Shown: positions 35,079 to 64,000 of the stretch, in pieces
How the letters are laid out: the number at the start of each line of letters is the position of its first letter
How positions within the stretch are numbered: position 1 is the first letter of the stretch
DNA from: Macrostomum lignano
Taxonomy: Eukaryota
Assembly: GCA_002269645.1 (NCBI GenBank)
Contig: NIVC01000516.1
Span: 454,892 to 518,891 of the forward strand
Direction: 5' to 3'
Length of the DNA stretch: 64,000 nt
Translations under genes and position numbers: made by a program
Notes under the pieces: generated by a model
What the model was told of the DNA's origin: nothing
Seen by the model: the letters and a program-made list of their open reading frames with translations, nothing else
Databases searched by the model: none

Positions 35079-35390
35079 CAGGGGCGTCGCCATGCATTTT
35101 ATGGGGGCAGGACAAAGCCAAGAATTCAACGTGTACATGATTACATTCCTACATGTCCATTATTTTGAGAATCGGTGTTGTCAGCGGTCATTTTAGCGCC
35201 GCAGCCACTCTTTTGGCGCCGCAGGCACTCATTTTAGCGCCGAAGGCAATCATTTTAGCGCCGCAGGCACTCATTTTGGTGCCCTTAAGAAAATTTATTG
35301 ATTTCCCTAACGGGTTACTAGGTAGGGAGGAGGGGGACAATGCATTGGCATGTCCCCCATAGCTTTTACTGGGGGGGAGGGGGGAAGCCG
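35079..35390. mobile_element. Same MITE, one end truncated
   Basis: Starts caggggcgtcgccatg. Reverse-complement similarity to 42440-42832. Confidence 0.8.
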
Positions 35391-35416
35391 TAGGTCTTGT
35401 GAAAAAAATGAGTCAC

Positions 35417-35737
35417 CTGCCCCCGCTGCTGGAGCACCATCTGCAGGTCTCGCCGCTCCAGCTCCCGCTCAGCAGGCGTCGCCGAGGCTGCCTGCAGGCG
35501 AAGTCGCCAACGCCTGGCGGTTTCCCGATCGCCGCTTCGTTTCGCCAGCGCCGCTCGCGTGGCCGCCAGGCGCCGATTGTAGCGCCGAAATAGCGCCGCC
35601 TGCTCGGAAGCCACGGCTGCGCTGACAATGGCGCCGGCCCGGGTCAGCTCCGCTAGCCGGTGACGGAGCGCCACATCCTCCTTGAAGTTGGCCAGAGTCG
35701 CCGACTGCTGCTGCTGCCGCTGACGAGTGCCGTCCAT
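35417..35737 (-). CDS. Unassigned helical Arg/Ala-rich protein, exon 1
   Basis: ATG 35737, GC-rich island among repeats, donor CAG|gtgact in phase 0. Confidence 0.65.
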
Positions 35738-36098
35738 ACGGAGAGCTTGTGACTGCCAACTATGGTCCAGCTAGCAAGCGCCGATCTTATAGCTTGGTTG
35801 CGGCATTTTAACCCGGGGTACGAGCGTACATGCATACACTGCTTTCCGAACCTTCTCTCTCCGGACCAAAGCATATACGCTCGTGATGATGTTTGAACAG
35901 CCGAATACCAAAATTATAGCATATCTCAGTCACACTGTTGAAAGCAAAACAAATAAAAGGGAAGCGATGTCAAATAAGGTGCGTCATCAGTGCACAAAAG
36001 CCTAAATTGAAATGAAGACTGGAATAATTAAGCGATAACGAACAACTAGTAGGGATGCGCGAGCTTCATGCATGAAAGACTTTTGAGAAACCCGTGTC

Positions 36099-36372
36099 CC
36101 AGGGGCGTCACAATAGTACGCCCTAGGGACATGCCAATGCTTTGCCCCCCCCCCCACTCCACCTTGTGACCCGTTGTGGCAATCCATAAGTTTTCTCCAG
36201 GGCGCCAAAATATAGCGCCTTTGGCGCCAAAATGTGTCTGCGGCGCCAAAAGGAATGCCTGGGTCGCCAAAATGACTGTCTGCGGCGCCAAAATGACTGT
36301 CTGCGGCGTCAAAATAAGCGCTGACAACACGATTCTCAAAATAATGGAAATGTAGGAATTTAGTCATGTACT
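36099..36372. mobile_element. Same MITE, truncated and diverged
   Basis: caggggcgtc start. gcgccaaaat repeats and the gcgctgacaacac...ctcaaaataatgga segment are shared with 42440-42832. Confidence 0.75.
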
Positions 36373-36376
36373 ACGC

Positions 36377-37530
36377 AGGTCGGATTTTTCCCATAAGCGC
36401 CAGTGTATTCAGTACACCCCTGTGTGCCAATCAGCACTGTGCCTCAGTGCAGCCTTGCCAAGTCTCCAAATTTCATCAGAACGTCGATCACATGTGTCTG
36501 CATCAGCTGTAACTTCGTTGGTCACTAACCTTCACTCGGCGGAGCTTCTGGACCTTTAACAGGTCACACCATGCAGATGACTATTGACATGCGAATTTCT
36601 CTAGTTTCACCGATCAAGCCTCGACAGTGGGCAAGCCTCAACTGCTGGACATCCTCAGCTAGTCTCTCGAGCATTCCGTCATCACCCCGACGCCGTTGGC
36701 TTCTTCAACAGTTGACACCAGGTGACTATGGACACGCTGTTGCGAATTTCTTTGATGTCGCTGACCAGCATCAATATTGGGCAAACTTTAACTTCTGGTC
36801 GTTCTCAGCTTATAGACTATCAAACAGTCTATCATCACCGGACATTATTACGTAAACGTGATGACATAATTTGTTAATTAAACTGTTAATTCAACAGAAT
36901 CTTCGCGAAGAAAAAAATTACAAGAAATTATCCAATTTTCTGTGTGAAATGAAGATCAATTTATAATATACTAAATCCTAATCTTGTCTTAAAAAGTTGC
37001 TAGGATTGTTAAGAAATTAAAAAAATCATCTCTTTTGGGTGTCTTTAGTCGGTTTCGTCTCCTTGAAGGTGCCGACGTCGGCTGAATGACAACCGGATGC
37101 TTGAAAAACTAGTTGAGGATGACCAGCAGTTGAGGTTTGCCCATTATTGAAGCTTGATAAGAAAAATCTGACATATTTGCAACCAGATGTCCACATAATC
37201 GCCTGGTGTAATCTGCTGAAGGTGCCGACGGCGTCGGGGTGATGACGGAATGCTCGAGAGACTAGCTGAGGATATCCAGCAGTTGAGGCTTGATCGGCGA
37301 AACTATAGTGAAATTCGCATCAGGGTGTCCATAGTCACCTGCATGGTGTCACCTGTTGAAGGTCTAGAAGCTCCGCCTGTGTGAAATTTAGGCCACAACT
37401 GATGAAGACACATGTGGTAGACATACTGATGAAATTTGAAGACTTGGCAAGGCTGCACTGAGGCCCAGTGCTGATTGGCGCACAGGGGTGTACTGAATAC
37501 ACTAGCGCTTATGGGAAAAAAATCCGACCT
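36377..37530. mobile_element. Foldback-type element with long inverted arms
   Basis: aggtcggattttt-cccataagcgc at the left and its reverse complement at the right. Arms align for several hundred bp and contain internal subrepeats around an AT-rich spacer. Confidence 0.75.
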
Positions 37531-42439: not shown

Positions 42440-42832
42440 CAGGCGCGTCGCATGCACCAGCAGAGGGGAGACAGGGGGGCCGGGACGACATGTCCCCCCC
42501 CCCCCCAGTAAAAGCTATGGGAATGCTTTGTCCCCCCACCCCACCTGTGACCCGTTGTAGTATAATCAGCAATTTCTCTTCAGGGTGCAAAATATAGCGC
42601 CTGCGGCGCTAAAATACAGCGCTAAAATATGCGCCGCTAAAATCATGCAGTGCCTGCGGCGCCAAAATGAGTGCCGCAGGCGCCAAAATGGCGCCAAAAT
42701 GAGCGCTGACAACACCGTGGTTCTCAAAATAATGGACACACAGGTAGGAATTTATTAGTCATATACATGTGTACATGTTGAATTATTGGCTTGTCCCCCA
42801 CCATACAGTAAAATCCATGGCGACGCCCCCTG
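42440..42832. mobile_element. hAT-type MITE, complete (393 bp)
   Basis: TIRs caggcgcgtcgc / gcgacgccccctg, perfect 8-bp TSD TCTTATGG (42432-42439 and 42833-42840), internal gcgcc-aaaat subrepeats. Confidence 0.9.
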
Positions 42833-43106
42833 TCTTATGGTGTTTCTAGTCGACTGGTCTGAGAAAGTTATCATCGATTGCAGTAAAAAATCGGTTTGTT
42901 ATAAATTAACATGTCGCTTTTTATAATATTGATACATGTACTTTTGGAACCTGGAACATCTCCAGAATTTCCTTTCGTACATGTATGCATTTACAGTGCG
43001 TACTGCGGAAGCACTGAAGCGGCTTAAAATGTTTTCAGAATTTTAGGAGCCACTATATAGAAAGCCGGCCCCTGCATATAGTACAGTAAACTGCACGACT
43101 GCAAGG

Positions 43107-43358
43107 GCAGCTCACGACTTGAAGGTCGAGGGTTCGATTCCCGATCCCACTGGAACAATTTTGTGTCCTTGAGCAGGGGACTTAACATTGCTTCAGTTCA
43201 CCCAGCTGTAAAATGGGTGCCAGCATTAGCTGGGGTAATTGAGGGTGTGTGTGGCGACCCCCCCAGCCCTTACGCAGCCTTCAGATGCTCCGCGCAATAG
43301 CTGCGGCTGAGCTGTCGGTTGCACATCTGCCGATCAGAGCAGGTGTGATTAATTATAT
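43107..43358 (+). mobile_element. Same SINE, 5'-truncated copy
   Basis: Colinear with 2497-2812 from ctcacgacttgaaggtc to the AT-rich tail. Confidence 0.85.
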
Positions 43359-43559
43359 TGGCGCCGTAAGCACATTATACATGTATTTTAGCGCCGCAGG
43401 CGCTATATTTTGCGCCCTGAAGAAAATGATCGACTGATTACTTCAACGAGTCAGAGGCTGTGGGGTGGGGGGACAAAGCATCGACATGTCCTATAGCTCC
43501 CAAAACTTTACTGGGGGGGGGACATGTCACCCTGTCCCCCCTGGGTGGCGACGCGCCTG
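43359..43559. mobile_element. Same MITE, half copy in opposite orientation
   Basis: Ends in the TIR tggcgacgcgcctg and abuts the SINE tail. Confidence 0.8.
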
Positions 43560-49952: not shown

Positions 49953-50253
49953 CTAGCGTTGTTGAAAAGCATTTTTTCGGAAATTTGGGCAGACAACTGG
50001 AGCAACTTTGACTAGCCTATCCCGATGAAACCGGTACCCAAGCCAAGAAGCGTTCCAGAGTCACTTGAGATTGAGTTAGTAGAAACCATATAATTAAGCG
50101 CTAACACTAATGACTCTCTAGCGATTCTTGTAACGGTAACTATTTTGCCCTCATTTGATAGATGTTTAGTTGGGTTGTTTCAAAAAAAGTACTAACTAGA
50201 TGACAAGGCTCCTGCGACACAGAACGCTCGCCTAGTTTTAACACGGCACTCAC

Positions 50254-50541
50254 CTGCCACTCTGACAACGGCCGTTTATCGGCGTAAGGCTTTAAGCAGT
50301 GGTCCAATACCTGCTTCTGCAGCTCCCAATTGAGCAGATAGCCCTTCTGAAAAGGCAGCTGATAGTACAGACCGGACAAGTCCTTGCACTCGTCGAGTTC
50401 ATTGCCAACAAATACTCGAGTTTTCACGTGCTTAGCCTTTGTTACAGAGTTGATTACCTGGCGAGGCTCTGACTCGCTGGCTGAGCCAATCTTTACATAG
50501 CCAGCGCCCAGATCAACTATAAGCGTGTCTTTGCCCGACAT
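50254..50541 (-). CDS. ACTR6: Actin-related protein 6, exon 1
   Basis: TLIVDLGAGYVKIG...LPFQKGYLLNW. Donor CAG|gtgag. Confidence 0.92.
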
Positions 50542-51760: not shown

Positions 51761-52646
51761 TTCAATAGTGGTTTTCTCATCTCGTGCAATATTAGCAATA
51801 ATAGCCTTCTCATCCTATGCAATAACAGTTTTCTCATCTTGTACAATAATAGTTTTCATATCTAGTGCATTAATCATTTTGTTATCGAGTGCAATATTTG
51901 TTTTAAATCATATGATTCAAACCCTGGCAACTGCATTAGCACTCCAATCTGTTCCCATCTAGGCTAGCTATCTTTGAATTTATTTATGAATTTATAGTAC
52001 TTATAATTCAACACTCGCACCAAGTCAGTTATGACATAATAAATTTCTTAGGCAAGTCAGTATCAGTCTTAATTGTAGTTAGCAATATGGTTATACAATC
52101 TAAATAAAGTATTTTGCTATGCTTCCACACTGTGTTTTCAATACTATGATCCAATTCAATTCAGTTATTCAGTGTCAAAATTTAGCTAGTACACAGATTG
52201 AATAAATAAAAAGCCTGTTGTAATACAATCTACTTTAGAATCAGAATTCAACTAGTCAGTTTTTTCTCTAGAATTTTTACAATGCATTTCAAGTTGAAAG
52301 AGCTGTTTGACCTTTCCAAAAAGGCAGTGCTTATCCCTACGGTATCCCTACCGTAGAAAAAATTTCTGTCTTATTCCAATGGTACCATGGGAAAAATTTT
52401 TTGCTTATCCACATGGCACACTGACGAGATAGCTGCCCTATATTCTATATATGCCATGGGAATAATTTTCTGCTTATCTGCATGGCACACTGACAAGATA
52501 GGGCGAATTGTTGAAGCAATGCAATAATCTATACAAACAAATTGCGAATTTACATGTCTAGTAAAAGTCTACAAAAGTGGCAATGGACTTTTTGGGGATC
52601 TCAGGATTAGACTAGTTGCTAAAAATTCAAATTATAAACAATTACT

Positions 52647-52923
52647 AGAGAGTAGTATAGAAAAAGACGCTTCTAGACCCAGAGCACTTTTTTAATGACC
52701 GTTTTAAGGGTCTAGAGGGGGGACACGGGGGGTAAATAAAAAAACACATCTAAACACCCTTAACACATCTAATCACCCATAATCACCCCTGACAATAAAA
52801 ATCACTTCCCAACACTTCCAAACACTCCCCAACACTCCCCTCGCGTCCCCCCTCTTAAGACCATAAAAACGGTCATTAAAATAAGGTCTGATCTAGAAGC
52901 GTCTTTTTCTATACTACTACTCT
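52647..52923. repeat. Inverted repeat with Polinton-like termini (arms of about 85-90 bp)
   Basis: agagagtagtatagaaaaagacgcttctaga... versus ...tctagaagcgtctttttctatactactactct. Confidence 0.9.
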
Positions 52924-53098
52924 ATAACCCCTTGCCCGCGCCGCAGGCGCGAAGGGTAGGAAAGAATAGAAGCTATTTATAGTCAGCTCACCTACCCACC
53001 CAACATTCCATTTAGACCAGATTTTAGACCAAACAAAACTAGACTATCGTTTTGGTTTTCGTTTTCAAAAATTTGGTCTAAAATCTGGTCCAAATGGA

Positions 53099-53539
53099 AT
53101 GCAGACAATCTTTTTTCTGTTACTAAAAATAGAACAAAAAATGACACACGTTACACATATGCAAAATCTGAATGAATTGCAGGTAGGAGACCCAGTTGAA
53201 TACCGAGGTGAGGGGCTTTTTGATGTGGTTGGAACAGCAGCAAATTTTGTTAAAGACAATATGGGGCTTATAGGGCAAGCTGGCTCCGCAGCAGGTTCTA
53301 TAACAAATGCTGTAAAAGGAGGAATTGAAGCAGCTAGAGCGGCAGAAGAACTAAAGAAATTGAGAGATTTTAACGACACCCTCTCACAAATAAATGCAAT
53401 AAAAGATTTAAAGCTGGCACAAGCCGCACAACCAACAGAAACCCCCACGAAAAGCGCACCAATAAGTAATAAAGATATTCAGGATTTTAATAAAATGTTA
53501 AATACTATTAAAGGTGGAAAAGGATTAAAGAAATTTTAA
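53099..53539 (+). CDS. Putative virion core / protease-processed protein
   Basis: YRGEGLFDVV and IKGGKG resemble adenain-type Gly cleavage sites followed by an amphipathic helix. The true start may be ATG 53141. Confidence 0.6.
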   Translation: MQTIFFLLLKIEQKMTHVTHMQNLNELQVGDPVEYRGEGLFDVVGTAANFVKDNMGLIGQAGSAAGSITNAVKGGIEAARAAEELKKLRDFNDTLSQINAIKDLKLAQAAQPTETPTKSAPISNKDIQDFNKMLNTIKGGKGLKKF

Positions 53540-53549
53540 CAATATAAAA

Positions 53550-54535
53550 ATGGACACAGATAACGACCGCTTATATTTTATAGGAGAAATTGTAGATACT
53601 TTAGATCTAGATGATAATAAACATAGCCACACAATGTTAAAAAGATTGGATCGATTAGGTAAAAAGTTTGACTACGACATCGATACATTTAAACTCGCAG
53701 CAAAATATGCACAAGAAGGAAGGCCAATATCCTTTAAGAATCGCGGCAGAAATTATAGGTTAACAGACTCCGATGTGAAATTTTTAATGGAGACTCACAC
53801 TAAAAAGGACGGCGGATTACTACCCATTCTACCGCTTCTTTTAGGACTTGGCGCAGCTGGAGCAGTCGGTTTAGCCGGAAAAAGAATTCATGATAATGTA
53901 AAACAGCTAGGAGAGTTAAGAGCGAAACAGGGGGAATCTTGCCCCTTGCAGCTTTGCTCCCAATAATTTTTGCAGGAATTGGAGCAGCTGGAGGAGTTGC
54001 TGGCGGAGCAGCTGGAATTGCAAAAGCAGTAAATGACAAAAAAGCTGCGGACGAAAAAGCTAAAAGAGAGGCCGAATTTCAAAGACAGCAAATAACGCAG
54101 GACGCACAATTTAAACAGAAACTTATTGATACCATTAATAGTAGTTCAGCAACAGCAGAGCAAAAAAGAAATGCAGAAGCTAGGTTAGCAGCCGGAAAAG
54201 GTTTACTCTTGCAAGGAACAAATCACGGGAATGGTTTGGTACTAAAAGGAACAACCCAAGGAAGTGGAGTTGTCGCAGATAAACTACATGAATTTGGCCA
54301 AACTTTAGAAAAAACGGGTGAGAAAGCTAAAGGATTTTTTGACAATATTGGATCCAATTTTAGACCAGCTGTTCAGAAAATTTTTAATAAATTAGGAAAA
54401 GATTTTAACATCATTGAAAAACACGACGGAAGCGGATTATATCTCGAAATGAGACCAAAAGCAGGTTCAGGAATTTTCTTAAATTCAAATGTTATGGGAA
54501 ATGGATTGCTATTACCAAAAGCAGATCTCGAATAG
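53550..54535 (+). CDS. Glycine-rich membrane-active virion protein of Polintons (single gene split by a 1-bp loss at 53930-53934)
   Basis: Adding one G gives KQGGILPLAALLPIIFAGIGAAGGVAGGAAGIAKAVND, the motif seen in Polinton core proteins. 986+1 nt = 329 codons. Confidence 0.75.
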
Positions 54536-54619: not shown

Positions 54620-57600
54620 ATGGAAGCAATTTTAGCTCAAATCGACAACCCTGAACTTAGAGCGCAATTAATAGCTCAAATCGATGCACAACGAATTGCC
54701 GATAGGGCTGAAATAGAAGCAAGAATTAGGGCAGAAAATGAGATACGTTTAGAAAGACAATTAAATGATATTAATAACCCCCAACCACAAGGACAAAATG
54801 GAGCTGAAGTAATATATATAGATATAGATATAAATACAAATTATAAAGAATATTTTAAACAAATGAAAGATAAATTAAAGACTATATTAAACAATTATAC
54901 TATAAGGCCAAATAACAAACGACAGCCAATTAAGTATAAAATAGAAGTTGAAACAGAATTTAAAAAACCAAATATTCTTAATGCAAATTCAGAAATTGAA
55001 GTAATAAATAACTTTTCACAAGAATCATATAAAACATTATTATCAATGGGAAATTACAACAATCAATTCGATCAAATAGAAGCTGAGTTTGATGAATGGA
55101 TAGATAAGATGACAGAAAACGGATCTGGGTTTATATTTGTATCCTGTAATTCAGCAATAGTAAAGATTGCACCTATAGAAATTCTTAAAGGACGATCACA
55201 TATGAAGCTCAAATTTAAATCACCTATGATTATAAATCCAGACAATAAAGATAATAAATGTTTATTATGGTGTTTATTAATTCATAAATATCACAATCAA
55301 GTAGAATCACACATTAATAAAATATATAATTATAGACAATATGAGGATGAAATAATAATGAAAAACATATCATACCCAGTAGCAATAGATGATATATATA
55401 AGATTGAAAAAATGAATGGTTTAAATATTAATGTTTTTACAATTGAAGAACCAAAAGATCTAGAAGAAATTCAGCAGGTCGATCCAGAATGGTATAAGAA
55501 AAACTGTTATCTTGTTAAGCCAGCAACGGATATAACAGCACCAGATCAAATCGATCTTTTGTACATGCAGCGCGAAAATGAAACACATTATATATACATA
55601 AAAGATATTAGTTCTTTTTTAAGAGAAAATAGAAATAGATATCCACTATGTAGAAATTGTTTTACATTTAAAAAGGATGAAACAGCTCTTAAAAACCACC
55701 AACGATTTTGTTTAGATCACAAATTTACTAATGCTATAATGCCAGCATCTGAAGATGCAACCCTAATGTTCCAACAACATTATATGGCAGTTAAAAAACC
55801 AATAGTAATATATGCTGATTTTGAAGCAACAAATGTTCCCTTAAAAGAATCACAGACGGTATCTGATGACGGTGAATGCACAAAAAAATTGGCACAACAG
55901 TTTCCGAATAGTTATTGTATATATGTACACTCTGTAGCTGATCATATATTTAAATCAAGGATGATTACTTACCACGGTAACGATGCAGCTAAGCACATGG
56001 CAGAATCATTAGTAAATGTATTTGAATATATTCAAAATCAATATGATAAATTATCAAAAAATATTAATATGACAAATAAGGATAGAGACAATTATAAAAA
56101 TGCAACAAATTGTTTTATGTGCAAAAGATATTTAAGTAAGAAAAATAAGATACGAGAACATTGTCATCTAACAGGAAATTATCGAGGGGCAGCATGTAGA
56201 TCATGTAATGCAAAAGAAGGAAAAGGATGTAAGGAAATACCAGTATTTTTTCATAATGGTCCGGATATGATTTTCATTTCTTAGTTCGAGAATTGCTTCA
56301 TTTAGGAAAGGATGAATATGAAATAAATATATTACCTAAAACATCAGAAAATTACATATCAATAACATATGGTAAGAAATACTCCCATCTAGTTTTTCTA
56401 GATTCCTTGAGATTCTTATCAACATCTTTAGCAAATGTTGTTTCATCATTAGTTCCAAAACCATGGGATTTAGAAATAGTAAAGAAAAACTTTCCAATAC
56501 TATTGAATCGTTTCAAAAAAGAAAAACTATCCGAGGAAGAACTAATGCTATTAACTCGTAAGGGCATCTATCCATATGAATATGTAACATCTGAAGACGT
56601 ATTTTTTCATACCGAATTACCACCCATAGAAAAGTTTTATTCAACATTATCACAAACAAATATAAGTGAATCGGATTATGAACACGCTCAAAAAGTATGG
56701 AAATACTTTAATTGTAAAACATTTAAAGATTATCATAATCTATATCTTAAAGCAGATGTTCTCCTATTAGCTGATGCATTTGAAAACTTTAGGAATCATA
56801 CATATGAGAATTTTAAAATTGATCCCGCATATTGTTTCAGTGCACCGGGATTAACATGGGCTTGTGGTTTGAAATACACAGATGTTAAGATTGATTTACT
56901 AACTGATCATGATATGTTGTTAATGATTGAGAGAGGAATTCGCGGCGGATTCTCGGTGTACTAGGAGATAGATATACTAAAGTAAATAATAAGTATCTTC
57001 CAAATTATAATAAAAAAGAAAAATCATCATATGTATTATATCTAGATGCAAACAATTTATACGGTGGTTGTATGAAACAAAAATTACCAATAGCTGATTT
57101 CCAATGGGAAGATGACCCCGATTATTACAAAAATATTCCCGAAGGAAGGGGCTGTATCGTAGAAGTGGATTTGCAATATACTCGGGAAGCAAAAGCAAAA
57201 ACATATAAATATCCTTTAGCTCCAGAGCATTGTTCAGTTAATGAAGATGATTTATCACAAACACAAAAAGATTATCTTAAAGTAGATAATGCAAAACATC
57301 TAGCAACAAAAAAATTAATATTAAATTTACATGATAAGAAAAACTATGTAGTGCATTATAAGCTTCTACAATTTTATGAAAAGCAGGGATTAAAAGTGTC
57401 TAAAGTACATCGAACAATATCGTTTATTGAGGAAGATTGGTTAGCTAAATATATTGACTTTAATTCAAATCAGAGACAGATGTCAAAAACAAATTTTGAG
57501 AAAGATTATTGGAAATTAATGAATAATGCTTTTTATGGAAAAACGGTTGAAAATATTAGAGATAGAACCCAATTCCATTTAGAAAAGGATATTGATAAAG

Positions 57601-58571
57601 CAAAGAAATATTTCTCAAAACCTAACTTTAAAGACTTTATAAAATTTGATGATAACTTTATGGGTATTCATATGAGAAATAAAACAACAAAATTTCTTAA
57701 ACCAATATTTATTGGAATGGTTGTTTTAGATTATGCAAAGCTGGTAATGTATGAATACTATTATGATGTTATAAATAAAACATGGCCAGATAACTATCCA
57801 ATATATGCAGACACCGACAGTTTGGTATTTAAGGTTGAAACAGATGATCGGGCAAAGCCCGAACCAAAGGTTCGATGTCTATAAAGATATGGAAAAAATT
57901 AAGGATACATGGATACCTCCGACTATCCGGATAACCATCCTTTAAAATCAGATCAAAATAAAAAAGTTGTACTTAAAATGAAAGATGAATTAAATAGCAA
58001 AATCATAACCGAGTTTATAGCAATAAGATCAAAATGCTATGCATTTAAGGTTTTAGGACAGGAGGGAGAGGTAAAAAAAATAAAAGGGGTATCAAGAGCA
58101 GCAGTAAAAAAGATAACATTTGATGATTATAAAAACGTACTTTTAGATTACCTTAATACAATTGAAAATTATCATGCTCCACAATATCGATTAAATTCAG
58201 ATAAGCATCAGATGTTTGTCATCGAGACAGATAAAAAAACATTAAGTCCATTTGATGATAAAAGGTATTTAGATGATAAAATTAAAACATATCCATATGG
58301 TTTAAAAGAAGAGATAAAAAATATGATAAAAGATAAAAAACAAAAAGAAGATATAATAAGTAAATATAATGAATACAAAGCGGCAATAAATAATTATTAT
58401 TACGATTGTGATTGTGAATCCGAATGTGATTGTGAATATAATACATTTCTAGAATATGAAAAAGATATAGATAATTATTATTCAACATTTCCAAAAGAAC
58501 TTAAAAAATTAAATAAGGAAAAAGTCTTGAATAACTGGAAGAGATTAACAGAAAAATTACTTATCGGATAA
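54620..58571 (+). CDS. polB: Protein-primed family B DNA polymerase with endonuclease VII domain (frameshifted as assembled)
   Basis: Exo I YADFEA, Exo II FHNG(S)GYDFHF, Exo III YLKADV, motif A DANNLYG, motif B KLMNNAFYGK, motif C YADTDS. Four ORFs are joined by lesions near 56260, 56955, 57849-57876 and 57906. Confidence 0.95.
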
Positions 58572-58936
58572 AATCCGCGACCCTTCGGGGCGGAAAAAAA
58601 CTAAAGCATGTAATTGTTTAAGCATAATATCCATTTCGATTTCATATAATATTGAAGGCCAATTTTCCTCGCAGTCGTCAGGGTAACTTAAACAATCCTT
58701 TATTTTTTTCCTAAGTTTTTTTATTTTTCTAACCAATCTATCTATTTCAATTTCAATTACTGTTTCAGCATAAGCAATTGCAGATTTAATAAAACGTTTT
58801 CTTTTATCCATTCATATCGGATGGGAAACATATCGTCCCCATACTCATGATATTTCTGAGATATAATTATATTTATTTTTTTATTAATATCATTAAGTTC
58901 ACGCTCTTTAGTGATAAGGATTTTTATCGTATCCAT
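58557..58936 (-). CDS. Small viral protein with a two-fold internal repeat (probably one gene with a 1-bp loss near 58811)
   Basis: A 59-aa ORF 58757-58936 overlaps ORF 58557-58811. Both halves share E.....K.I.......Y.DD...P.I.YE. Confidence 0.45.
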
Positions 58937-60775: not shown

Positions 60776-62815
60776 TTATATTTGAGTAGGAGGTTTTTCC
60801 AAATAAGCAGTAGAGGGAAAAACATAACCAAAAGACGTACTACCACATACAACCGCACCACGAATAAAATGTGCAGCATCCGCTCCACCAGTTCGAGCAC
60901 CAAAACCCATAAGGGTTCCAGATTTATCTAAAGTTCCCCAAGTTCCACTATCATATGTGAAAACGTTCTGTCCAATGAGGGTAAAAGAATCACCAGCAAC
61001 ATTGTATGACTGTAATCGGTACCAAACCCTTTGATTTAAAATATTAATTTCAAATAAATGCCAATCGCCGTTATCAATATTAGCATAGGCTACAGTTTGA
61101 TCTGCGTCAGTATTAACATCCGCGCGGCTTGATCCGCCTGATTTTTTATTACTCCAAACAACTCCAAACCTATCATGCCACTCACTTGCAAAAACTATCA
61201 ATCCGGCGTCGGTTGATAATCCAGTTCCAAATTCCGATGTTGGACGTTGGTGACAGTATGCATAAAACCAAACCGCATCTGCACCATTTCCTGTAGCATT
61301 AGCAACTCGGAAAAAGAAAGACGCAGATATATTTTGAAAATGTGTGAAATTAAATTGTAAAGCCCCACTTACACCTGCGGTTTCACGAGTAATTCTAGCT
61401 CCATTTTGATAATCGATATAAGAAGCGTCACCAATTAAAGAACCAACTGGATATATATCTCCAGCGGTTGTTGGATTTTGATATCCAGTCCAATTACAAA
61501 TTACTGGCTCGAACAAGGCCGCATCAATAGCAGGTATTCCATCCAATTTATTTTTATCGCTTCCAGACATTCTACCATTTGATGTTGGAGTAGCTAGCTG
61601 ATCTACGTACGCTCGCGGAACTGCAGAAAGTATTTGAGTTGGCCAATTAAGATCTTGAATTTCAACACGGTGTTCAAATAATTGTATTTGACGAACCTCG
61701 ATAGGTTGTGTACCGGTACCACCAGTTGGGAAGAATACGCTATAATATTTCCAAAAATTAGTCGTTAAATTAGATAGAGCAAATGATGTTGCTTGAACTG
61801 GTGATCCCGACGTAGTTAATGTCGTCCATGAATCGGTAGCAACATTTTTTGCGCGAACGACCACCCCGAGGGTATCTCAATTGTTTCACTGCCTGTAATT
61901 CTTAATTCAAATATTCTTCTATTATAACCTAAAAATTCAAATTGAATTTCCATATTGGTTGTGGTTCCGGTATTTGGTGACCATTGTGTCGCAAGGCTTC
62001 CATCTCCAACTCGAAAAGCTGTGTTGCCATTTTCAGATGCTGTAAGAACAACATCAGGATTTGAAGTATTTGATGTAAGCGGCGTGGTAAAAATATCGGC
62101 GTCGGTTGCATTAGCTCGCTCGTTTACTTGGCCTAGAGTTATCGAGTCTGCGTTCTCTGTTCCAAATAATAAATTTGTTAATTTAAAATTATTCATATTA
62201 ATATTACCACTACGAGTGGCAACTTGATTATCGACATAGTTCTTATCAACCACTGAATCACTAGTTGTAATTGAAACATTTATAATTCGGTTGTTGCTCA
62301 TATCTAGGTTTCCGGTTGCGGTGGTTTGAACATAACGTGAATCAGAATCAGTTCGAGAATAAGAATCAGTTACATCTCTTTTTAAATTTAATCCATTATC
62401 AACTTCGGTTTTGGTATAAGAATCGGCTACGTTCCGTTTCAAATTTAATGAATTATCAACTTCGTTTTGGTATAAGAATCGGCTATTTCGTTTTAAATTT
62501 AATGAATTATCAACTTCGGTTTTGGTATAAGAATCGGCTGTATTGCGTTTTAAATTTAATGAATTATCAACTTCGGTTTTGGTATAGGAATCGGCTACGT
62601 TCCGTTTCAGATTTAGTGAATCATCTATTTGAGTTTTGGTATAGGAATCTGCAACATTTCTTTTTAAATTTAATTTATTATCAATTCAGTTTTTTTATAA
62701 CCTTCATCTCATTAATATATCGATTATCTCCAAATGTAACACTTATTCCACCAGATGTGCCACCACCACCACTACTTGTTGTTCCGTTCCATGAGGGTGT
62801 TCCAGAAAATAACAT
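60776..62815 (-). CDS. Fibre / receptor-binding protein: 19-aa repeats, shaft motifs, discoidin-like and L-type lectin-like domains (frameshifted as assembled)
   Basis: YTKTEVDNSLNLKRNVADS repeats, LDMSNNRIINV..KNYVD, AF..DG...TQWS...WKYY...EVRQIQLF, GRMSGSDKNKLDGI, NGADAVWF...GFGARTGG...H. Five small losses (6 nt total) restore about 681 aa. Confidence 0.75.
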
Positions 62816-62825
62816 TTTTTACTGT

Positions 62826-63254
62826 CTATTTTATAGAGTCTAAAATAGTCTTAAATACTTCGGGGTTTCCGAGTTATTAATCGATATAAAAAATACAACG
62901 CCGCTTGCCCGCAATAACTTTTATCAAAGTTTGAAATTGTTCGTGATGATCTCCACATAAACGATTTTTAGTATGATTAAATTTCTTTTATTTCCTGTAA
63001 CGGAGGAAGCGCGTATGAATCAAAAAAATAAACAAGTTTTGGTTTGAATAAACTGCTGACCAATGAACACCATTTTCTTTTGTTGTTTCAATATTAACAA
63101 TGAAAGATCCATATTGTGGTAAGTCTTTGATCTCATCTCGCATAACACATCTGAATGGTTTTATTTTTAACTGCCTCGCCCAATTTGTTAATTCGATATT
63201 GCTTGTTGTGTCCGTTCCATATCTTTGTTTAAAATCATCCCACGTCATGGTCAT
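62826..63254 (-). CDS. Adenain-like cysteine maturation protease (frameshifted as assembled)
   Basis: GVHW (His), YFFDSYALPP (Asp) and Q.QTFDKSYCGQ (Cys) recovered across short indels. Confidence 0.85.
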
Positions 63255-63464: not shown

Positions 63465-64000
63465 TTTTACTATAGAAAACCTGTTTTATACGTAAAATTA
63501 TTGTTATTGACTGCCCACCAAAACTTATTAATCTATCGCTTTCATCTACAATCCTAATATAAATTGATTGAACATTATATTGATTTAATGGGTAATATAT
63601 TGGGGTTTGAGGTGATACAATCATTTTCTCTCCAATTGGAACAGCAAGAAATGGGATTGAATAAATAATTCCACGTTGAAACCAAAACTCCGTTATTCTG
63701 TTATATAACCACCGTTTGAAATGTCGGTTGTTATATTAATTGTATTTACTCCACCCTCTATATTTCCAACTGTATCACCGGTGCTTGATGTAGTAACTAT
63801 TCAGGAATTAAATCCAAGTATGGTTCTGAGTGAATTTGCAATTGTGAAATCAACCTGATATCCGGATCCTAGTGATAGTGTGAATCTGCCAGACGGTAAA
63901 TCAACACCTATAACAATTGCTCCTGCTACCCAATCACCATTAGTTGTTAATTCTCCTTCTATATAAGCATTCAAATCAGTATAGCTATACGCTCCTGGGT
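63457..64000 (-). CDS. Minor capsid protein (penton), 3' part
   Basis: PGAYSYTDLNAYI...VDF....SLRTILGF...NTINITTDI...PIYYPL....IYIRIVDESDRLISFGGQSITIILRIK. In-frame TGA at 63801-63803 and a 1-bp loss near 63698. Confidence 0.8.

Follow-up and report, generated by a model that had tools for sequence, protein, structure and literature searches.

A fold-back end, probably built in, of a Polinton-type element and its recurrence in three polymerase clades

Results

Overall architecture of the locus

We analyzed a 64-kb stretch of Macrostomum lignano DNA (64,000 nucleotides, hereafter called the window), in which a Polinton-type element begins with a 277-bp fold-back unit and continues past position 64000. 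The first two ORFs of the element (53099-53966, + strand) have no Pfam match. They are followed by the gene for a protein-primed DNA polymerase (pPolB), which is spread over four ORFs (54620-58571, + strand) and was assigned by Pfam and by homologues. The DNA_pol_B_2 match (E 4.6e-5) lies under the gathering score, and 55 homologues were found (best E 2e-92; E 1e-145 along an intact relative). The window gene is broken into pieces by frame changes, which may be sequencing errors. These polymerases also carry an Endonuclease VII-like domain. A terminator-like GC hairpin (58575-58594) lies directly 3′ of the polymerase stop codon, where the + and − strand genes converge.

Three regions on the − strand complete the visible part of the element. 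ORFs at 60776-62700 contain a 57-bp tandem repeat (62359-62700) and resemble a fibre-type gene in several frames, with no Pfam match. An adenain-like maturation protease is encoded in two frames at 62863-63254 and resembles ORFs of three related loci described below (L004, L019, and L034), among which the L019 ORF weakly matches Peptidase_C5 (E 0.006). Finally, a probable minor capsid (penton) gene at 63481-64000 runs off the window. This candidate matches, at E 1e-10, the L019/L034 ORF that sits between the ATPase and major capsid genes, and has an Atlas lead to Sputnik V18/19 (0.89). The protease and penton ORFs of the window lack a direct Pfam match, and were identified through the complete modules of L019 and L034. 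In a comparison with 349 proteins of the related loci, no rve integrase or A32-like ATPase was matched within the window; the major capsid gene and the far end lie beyond its edge at 64000. Judged by its sequence, the element has the polymerase, the protease and probable capsid gene, and the terminal motif of a Polinton/Maverick (adintovirus).

The GC content falls to about 30% to the right of the fold-back unit. The sequence to its left includes AT-rich DNA (about 900 bp), a minisatellite, and a host gene for an actin-related protein (50140-50541, − strand), which is interrupted by minisatellites and is ARP6-like to judge from a motif. A 48-bp direct repeat at 69-bp spacing, accompanied by small palindromes, occupies 52332-52510, 150-300 bp upstream of the terminus. 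Farther away, the host DNA contains a Shaker-type potassium channel gene (1112-1924, − strand), which is indicative of an animal, and three MITE-like fold-back elements with imperfect arms (35133-36371, 36385-37520, and about 42440-43540). Two of these three hold GC-rich palindrome arrays with GCA or GAA loops, and share a 13-bp core with the sequence at 52938.

Structure of the fold-back unit

The outer arm (52647-52732, + strand, 86 bp) is the left terminus of the element. It begins with AGAGAGTAGT, has the Polinton end motif at its start, and contains a 9-bp dyad. After an unstranded loop of 104 nt (52733-52836), the terminus is repeated in inverted orientation as the inner arm (52837-52923, − strand, 87 bp), with the same motif at its end, and the pairing stops at this motif. 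Aligned over 90 columns, the two arms are 85.6% identical and are separated by 11 difference events, none of which falls in a block of 27 nt just inside the end. The local alignment score of the arms is 112, whereas 1000 dinucleotide shuffles did not exceed 25, and the inverted arms of 85-90 bp reported in an earlier note on this DNA are therefore real. The predicted fold has an energy of −67.6 kcal/mol (z = −15), equalled by none of 200 shuffles.

Since the arms differ by both substitutions and indels, the unit cannot be explained by a read that doubled back on itself. An assembly or read artefact could draw on the frame changes in the window polymerase, which are perhaps sequencing errors, but it has to face the 11 difference events between the arms and the recurrence of the layout, with unrelated sequences, in five further contigs that belong to four further assemblies. 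We consider such an artefact extremely improbable.

The loop is predicted to be unpaired, and its + strand has a single G in 104 nt. It contains nine A[AT]CAC cores with a period of 10 bp (shuffle mean 1.6; at least nine in 0 of 5000 shuffles), grouped in two blocks that are each headed by an AATAAA-like run. Thus, the earlier description of an almost G-free spacer with a 10-bp period stands, while the length of about 110 bp and the count of about ten cores were slightly too high. G-poor windows are not rare in the host DNA (223 of 6390), although the element body has none (0 of 1079), and no G-quadruplex pattern is present in the G-rich strand of the loop. The hairpins of the relatives L013, L024, and L041 lack the 10-bp repeat loop, so the term “iteron-like” once given to the spacer finds no support. 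The repeats are best read as an expansion specific to the loop of the window's family, with a composition that would keep the loop unpaired.

No further copy of the arms or the loop exists elsewhere within the 64-kb window, and an exact search of prokaryotic genome contigs with the shared arm block returned 0 matches, a result that says little about dispersed solo copies. BLAST of 52600-53140 against phages and plasmids found no match, and all 14 Rfam matches fell below threshold; none of them placed the 277-bp unit in a family.

Host junction and terminal base

A Polinton terminal motif of the (AGT)2/(AG)3/(AC)3A type is present at the host junction of the window. The listed end motifs of Mavericks include (AGT)2, (AG)3, and (AC)3A (PMC8097293, in the part consulted). 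The outer edge reads (AG)3 if the element starts at 52647, and (AGT)2 if it starts at 52651. As both starts give a listed motif, the terminal base may be either of the two. Upstream of 52647, element and host were indistinguishable to a k-mer classifier, and the boundary therefore rests on the end motif and the relatives. We also considered the end-to-end junction of a circular or concatemeric genome, and rejected it because the motifs would then sit in the center rather than at the outer edges.

Around the 277-bp unit, no exact target-site duplication of 5-6 bp exists at any register that keeps both arms whole, in agreement with the earlier note, which had seen no 6-bp duplication. Exact flank matches of 3-5 bp appear only at registers that cut into the repeat of the inner arm itself, apart from one 3-bp match outside the arms. 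The best match at the ends of the unit is four of six bases, which leaves a decayed duplication neither proven nor ruled out. Duplications typical of other transposon classes (TA, TTAA, or 3-4 bp) were also sought, and only an uninformative TA dinucleotide flanks one register.

Relatives with two arms and with one

In order to define a set of relatives, we searched with an alignment of the window polymerase and 16 of its 55 homologues. This yielded 46 loci (L001-L046), 33-50% identical, in a genome contig collection of prokaryotic assemblies. They look like Polinton-like eukaryotic virus contigs lying in bacterial and archaeal genome bins; from their gene content, they are apparently eukaryotic viral DNA that contaminates these assemblies. 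Most of the 46 loci lack a recognisable element end, and only the loci named here were classified, partly by eye.

The 46 loci and the window contain 85 local inverted repeats in 468 kb. Only four of these have Polinton motifs on both outer edges, and each of the four is located on the upstream side of the polymerase, where the element appears to end: the window unit, L013:3554-3712, L024:5613-5743, and L041:2544-2647. L013, L024, and L041 share the layout of the window, consisting of host DNA, motif and arm, loop, inverted arm and motif, and element body. The L013 and L041 fold-backs (159 and 104 bp) have (AC)3A edges, and the L024 fold-back (131 bp) has GAGTAGT edges. In L031 and L032, the contig starts inside the outer arm and the inner arm is visible. 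The relatives thus include three complete and two partial double arms. No far end was seen in any of these loci or in the window, and the double arm is known from the polymerase-side end. The DNA outside the outer arm looks host-like in L013, L024, and L041, and in L013 it contains a reverse transcriptase fragment and a microsatellite. L013 also encodes an rve integrase and an A32 ATPase, and the polymerase is uninterrupted in L024 (1248 aa) and L031 (1240 aa).

On a FastTree phylogeny of 60 sequences, from which L045 was dropped as too short, the fold-back elements form three polymerase clades that are 1.8-2.4 substitutions per site apart. Only one arm is present in L006, L015 (which has a 100-N gap), and L020, where the best inverted matches are 10-13 of 20 bases, as compared to 17-20 of 20 in the fold-backs. 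L006 is the sister of L013/L041 on the polymerase tree. The fold-back is therefore not required. Apparent inner arms in L035 and L036 lie inside the polymerase gene and were discarded.

Several other structures were observed in these loci. In L020:4522-4552, a GNA-type hairpin that extends to the end of the contig comes after a right-end motif, an arrangement similar to the sequence past the inner arm of the window. Two short hairpins, without a canonical end motif, lie near the polymerase-side boundary of a complete-looking Polinton in L019:11316-11450 and L034:11582-11720. Three contigs each contain two polymerase-integrase regions (L021/L043, L027/L040, and L014/L030), which converge in inverted orientation and share about 5-6 kb of middle sequence; these are possibly very long inverted repeats that include genes. 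In L013:5865-15369, a 4.75-kb tandem duplication (99.6% identical) covers the C-terminal part of the polymerase and the integrase. The dinucleotide AG precedes the (AGT) motif in all four inner arms of this type (L024, L031, L032, and the window) and not in the outer arm of L024; the outer arm of the window and the (AC)3A family do not display this pattern. The extra AG could reflect 2-nt end processing by the integrase.

Relationship between the unit and the element body

Is the 277-bp unit a part of the element or a separate insertion? A small GC hairpin with a GCA triloop (52929-52956, + strand) adjoins the inner arm on its inside, and its 13-bp core recurs in host fold-back repeats at 42597 and 43391. 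A second hairpin with arms of about 30 bp (53004-53101, unstranded) follows, for which Rfam gave only sub-threshold matches to miRNA-type hairpins. The second hairpin and the arms of the unit share the motif GACC/TAGACC, with ten GACC in the 455 bp from the arms to this hairpin, as compared to 1.5-3.5 per kb elsewhere. This shared motif ties the 277-bp unit to the element body.

The alternative raised in the earlier note is a non-autonomous mini-Polinton (TIR-spacer-TIR) that was inserted at or in the end of the virus. Non-autonomous Polintons are listed in Repbase, and Tlr1 is the only one that we found so described in the literature. The unit does have the anatomy of a mini-element, a near-duplication of four of six bases flanks it in both the window and L024, and the host has other fold-back elements, while a 278-bp fold-back insertion (L005:4984-5261) interrupts the polymerase gene of L005 and is absent from L007, L008, and L010. 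Against this, an exact duplication is absent in all four complete fold-back cases (4/6, 2/6, 4/6, and 0/6 bases matching), the position is the same in three clades, neither side has a separate element terminus, and the window holds no second copy of the arms or loop, in addition to the motif shared with the next hairpin. Solo copies of the 277-bp unit, which could arise from it as a by-product, were found neither in the 64-kb window nor in the 46 loci. We regard a parked mini-element as very unlikely.

The motif-edged units at the element end, the same layout in distant clades, and the paired changes described below make a built-in terminus the most likely explanation, rather than an artefact or a parked mini-element. 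From the anatomy and the relatives, we conclude with high confidence that the unit is an integral left terminus, complementary to itself, of an integrated Polinton/adintovirus, and the earlier proposal of a local fold-back belonging to the end of the element is thereby strongly supported.

Conservation of pairing during sequence change

In the comparison of L024 with L031/L032, 8 of 19 comparable pairs have changed on both sides, and 90.8% of the cells remain paired, as compared to 34-45% in slid controls, a level reached by 1 of 500 shuffles. Three sequences, of which two are near-identical, enter this comparison, and the structure was itself taken from them. The loop regions of L024 and L031/L032 are homologous and have the same orientation. 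The hairpin orientation is identical in all three copies of the L024 family, a small sample for which L013 versus L041 is uninformative. The region of the promoter and start codon, downstream of the hairpin, is common to L013 and L041, whereas their hairpins differ in both length and sequence.

The pairing reaches the terminal base in all four complete cases, and is best there. When the fold-backs are pooled, only 3 of 34 arm differences fall in the outer third (binomial p 0.001; 1 of 11 for the window alone), a test biased by the choice of hits by their edge motifs and by hand-set inner arm limits that include four loop-edge mismatches.

Discussion

Proposed role of the fold-back terminus

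To our knowledge, Polinton replication and excision have never been shown. In the standard Polinton model, the two far ends must pair. How might a self-complementary end serve such an element? We tentatively propose, at somewhat less than even confidence, that the unit is a local duplex origin for protein priming and an end-repair template on displaced single strands. Strand-displacement synthesis or excision would free the bottom strand, and its 3′ end would fold flush onto the inner arm. This fold would restore a duplex origin on the spot, and the far end, at a distance of about 15-20 kb, would not be needed as a pairing partner. The polymerase and the terminal protein could then start at the slide-back motif and regenerate the free end exactly at the outer edge, which would be the end that the integrase joins to host DNA. 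A 3′ end that had been nibbled could be re-extended on the inner arm, and the terminus would thus be repaired. Through such repair, the two arms would stay nearly identical over their outermost 13-27 bp, and their deeper parts would be free to drift. We favor the local origin with end repair because L024 and L031 retain the slide-back motif and whole polymerases, because the element meets host DNA at the outer motif, and because neither flip-flop (three copies) nor a nicking gene (ORFs scanned) was seen.

A flush 3′ end on a continuing template also invites extension into the body, and self-priming fits this geometry equally well. In a parvovirus/AAV-style scheme, the folded 3′-OH would be extended into the body to yield a hairpin-closed duplex or an inverted dimer, which a nick, or protein priming at an internal site, would later open at the motif. 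The pairing up to the terminal base in the four complete cases is in its favor, the Endonuclease VII-like domain of the polymerase might be a resolvase, and a preprint proposes the same model to explain the palindromes at the termini of virophages and PLVs from protists (bioRxiv 10.64898/2026.07.28.741278, in the part consulted). However, those palindromes are preferentially found in non-pPolB elements, and our relatives keep the slide-back motif and whole polymerases. The scheme also needs a resolution step, and no Rep/HUH or NS1 nicking gene is present among the ORFs scanned (in the window, 15 ORFs of an element that continues past 64000). The absence of flip-flop in the three copies is weak evidence in the same direction. 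Overall, we judge self-priming rather unlikely.

A broader reading, which seems doubtful to a similar extent, is that hairpin-ended pPolB Polintons form a widespread and overlooked AAV-like class with a mixed replication cycle. Hairpin self-priming would produce the closed duplex or inverted dimer, and the end would be reopened by protein priming at the slide-back motif or by the Endonuclease VII-like domain of the polymerase.

The fold-back could instead be a recurrent by-product with no role, in which copy-back template switching near the terminus, or the repair of a single-strand break, duplicates the end, and the duplicate is tolerated and homogenised. Accidental annealing is the alternative that the authors of the preprint themselves offer (bioRxiv 10.64898/2026.07.28.741278), and the patchy distribution of the double arm on the tree, the range of unit lengths (104-277 bp) with widely different loops, and the nearly perfect arms of L013, as expected of a young event, all point this way. 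Nevertheless, the homologous hairpins of L024 and L031/L032 survived a wholesale change of their arms with the pairing kept, the pairing stops at the end motif each time, and a simple copy-back would probably remain joined to the body only after two template switches. We consider a by-product rather unlikely, and retain the local origin with end repair as our preferred, provisional model.

Comparison with known systems

The terminal palindrome of parvoviruses and AAV is flush with the 3′ end (A/A′ arms), and its hairpins are resolved by Rep/NS1 nicking, with flip-flop. The units described here are likewise flush with the 3′ end, whereas neither a Rep/NS1 gene (among the ORFs scanned) nor flip-flop (in three copies) was seen. 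Streptomyces telomeres are a precedent for the combination of fold-back, protein priming, and end repair: the ends are protein-primed, the 3′ single strand folds back locally into GNA-loop hairpins, and an end that has been truncated is restored when it is extended along the fold-back (PMC5449611, in the part consulted). They differ in that bacterial Tap/Tpg patches the ends after internal initiation, with 13-nt palindromes, and homology is neither shown nor implied. Casposons are also self-synthesizing elements, and some of their TIRs contain internal palindromes, with a far-end panhandle as the proposed origin; in contrast to the present elements, they are prokaryotic and use a Cas1 integrase (PMC4046053, in the part consulted).

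The closest known structures, reported in a July 2026 preprint, are palindromes inside the TIRs, beside the target-site duplications, of Halocafeteria seosinensis virophage subtypes 1, 2, 5, and 6 and PLV subtype 4, for which the authors propose hairpin priming or accident (bioRxiv 10.64898/2026.07.28.741278). As in our case, each palindrome is contained in the terminus and adjoins the host junction, and the elements encode an integrase and belong to the Polinton-like supergroup. In contrast, they are short (52 nt in subtype 5; the screen allowed a gap of at most 10 nt), and occur in mostly non-pPolB elements of a protist. The fold-backs analyzed here are 104-277 bp long, imperfect, with loops of up to 104 nt and canonical Polinton motifs at their edges, in pPolB elements, and the host DNA of the window is of animal type. 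The earlier statement that such an arrangement had not been described was thus partly wrong, in view of these terminal palindromes and the hairpin-priming model.

The window element resembles canonical Polintons/Mavericks in its end motifs, pPolB, protease, and capsid genes, and departs from them in that the partner of the TIR is not the far genome end but lies 277 bp inside the same end (PMC8097293, PMC10748475). The consulted parts of these two papers contain no mention of a palindrome or hairpin at canonical TIRs. More widely, we found no description of a motif-edged double arm in animal pPolB Polintons in the parts consulted of PMC8097293, PMC8502044, PMC10748475, PMC11296320, PMC11131425, PMC5499653, PMC6431247, PMC12747079, and 10.64898/2026.10.13.758929, a scope to which the founding papers of 2006-2007 and Repbase do not belong.

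Implications

Taken together, these results establish that the feature is real. Its most likely identity is that of a terminus, integral to a Polinton-type element, that folds back on itself; such termini recur in three polymerase clades, and their function is putative. As far as the sources consulted extend, it belongs to the recently noticed class of terminal palindromes, as a fresh variant, and widens that observation from protist elements mostly without pPolB to three pPolB clades. In corals, 22.8% of the elements were assigned TIRs by a screen for distant partners (PMC11131425, in the part consulted). As such screens seek partners many kb apart, local fold-backs may explain some of the elements scored as lacking TIRs.

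If the mixed cycle is true, it would bring together, within a single element, the end replication of the adenovirus type and that of the parvovirus type, and if hairpin ends form a class, each end would be a ready-made mini-Polinton of 100-280 bp. A conserved local fold-back in pPolB elements would offer a route other than far-end pairing, and provides a small, concrete substrate on which protein priming and self-priming can be set against each other.
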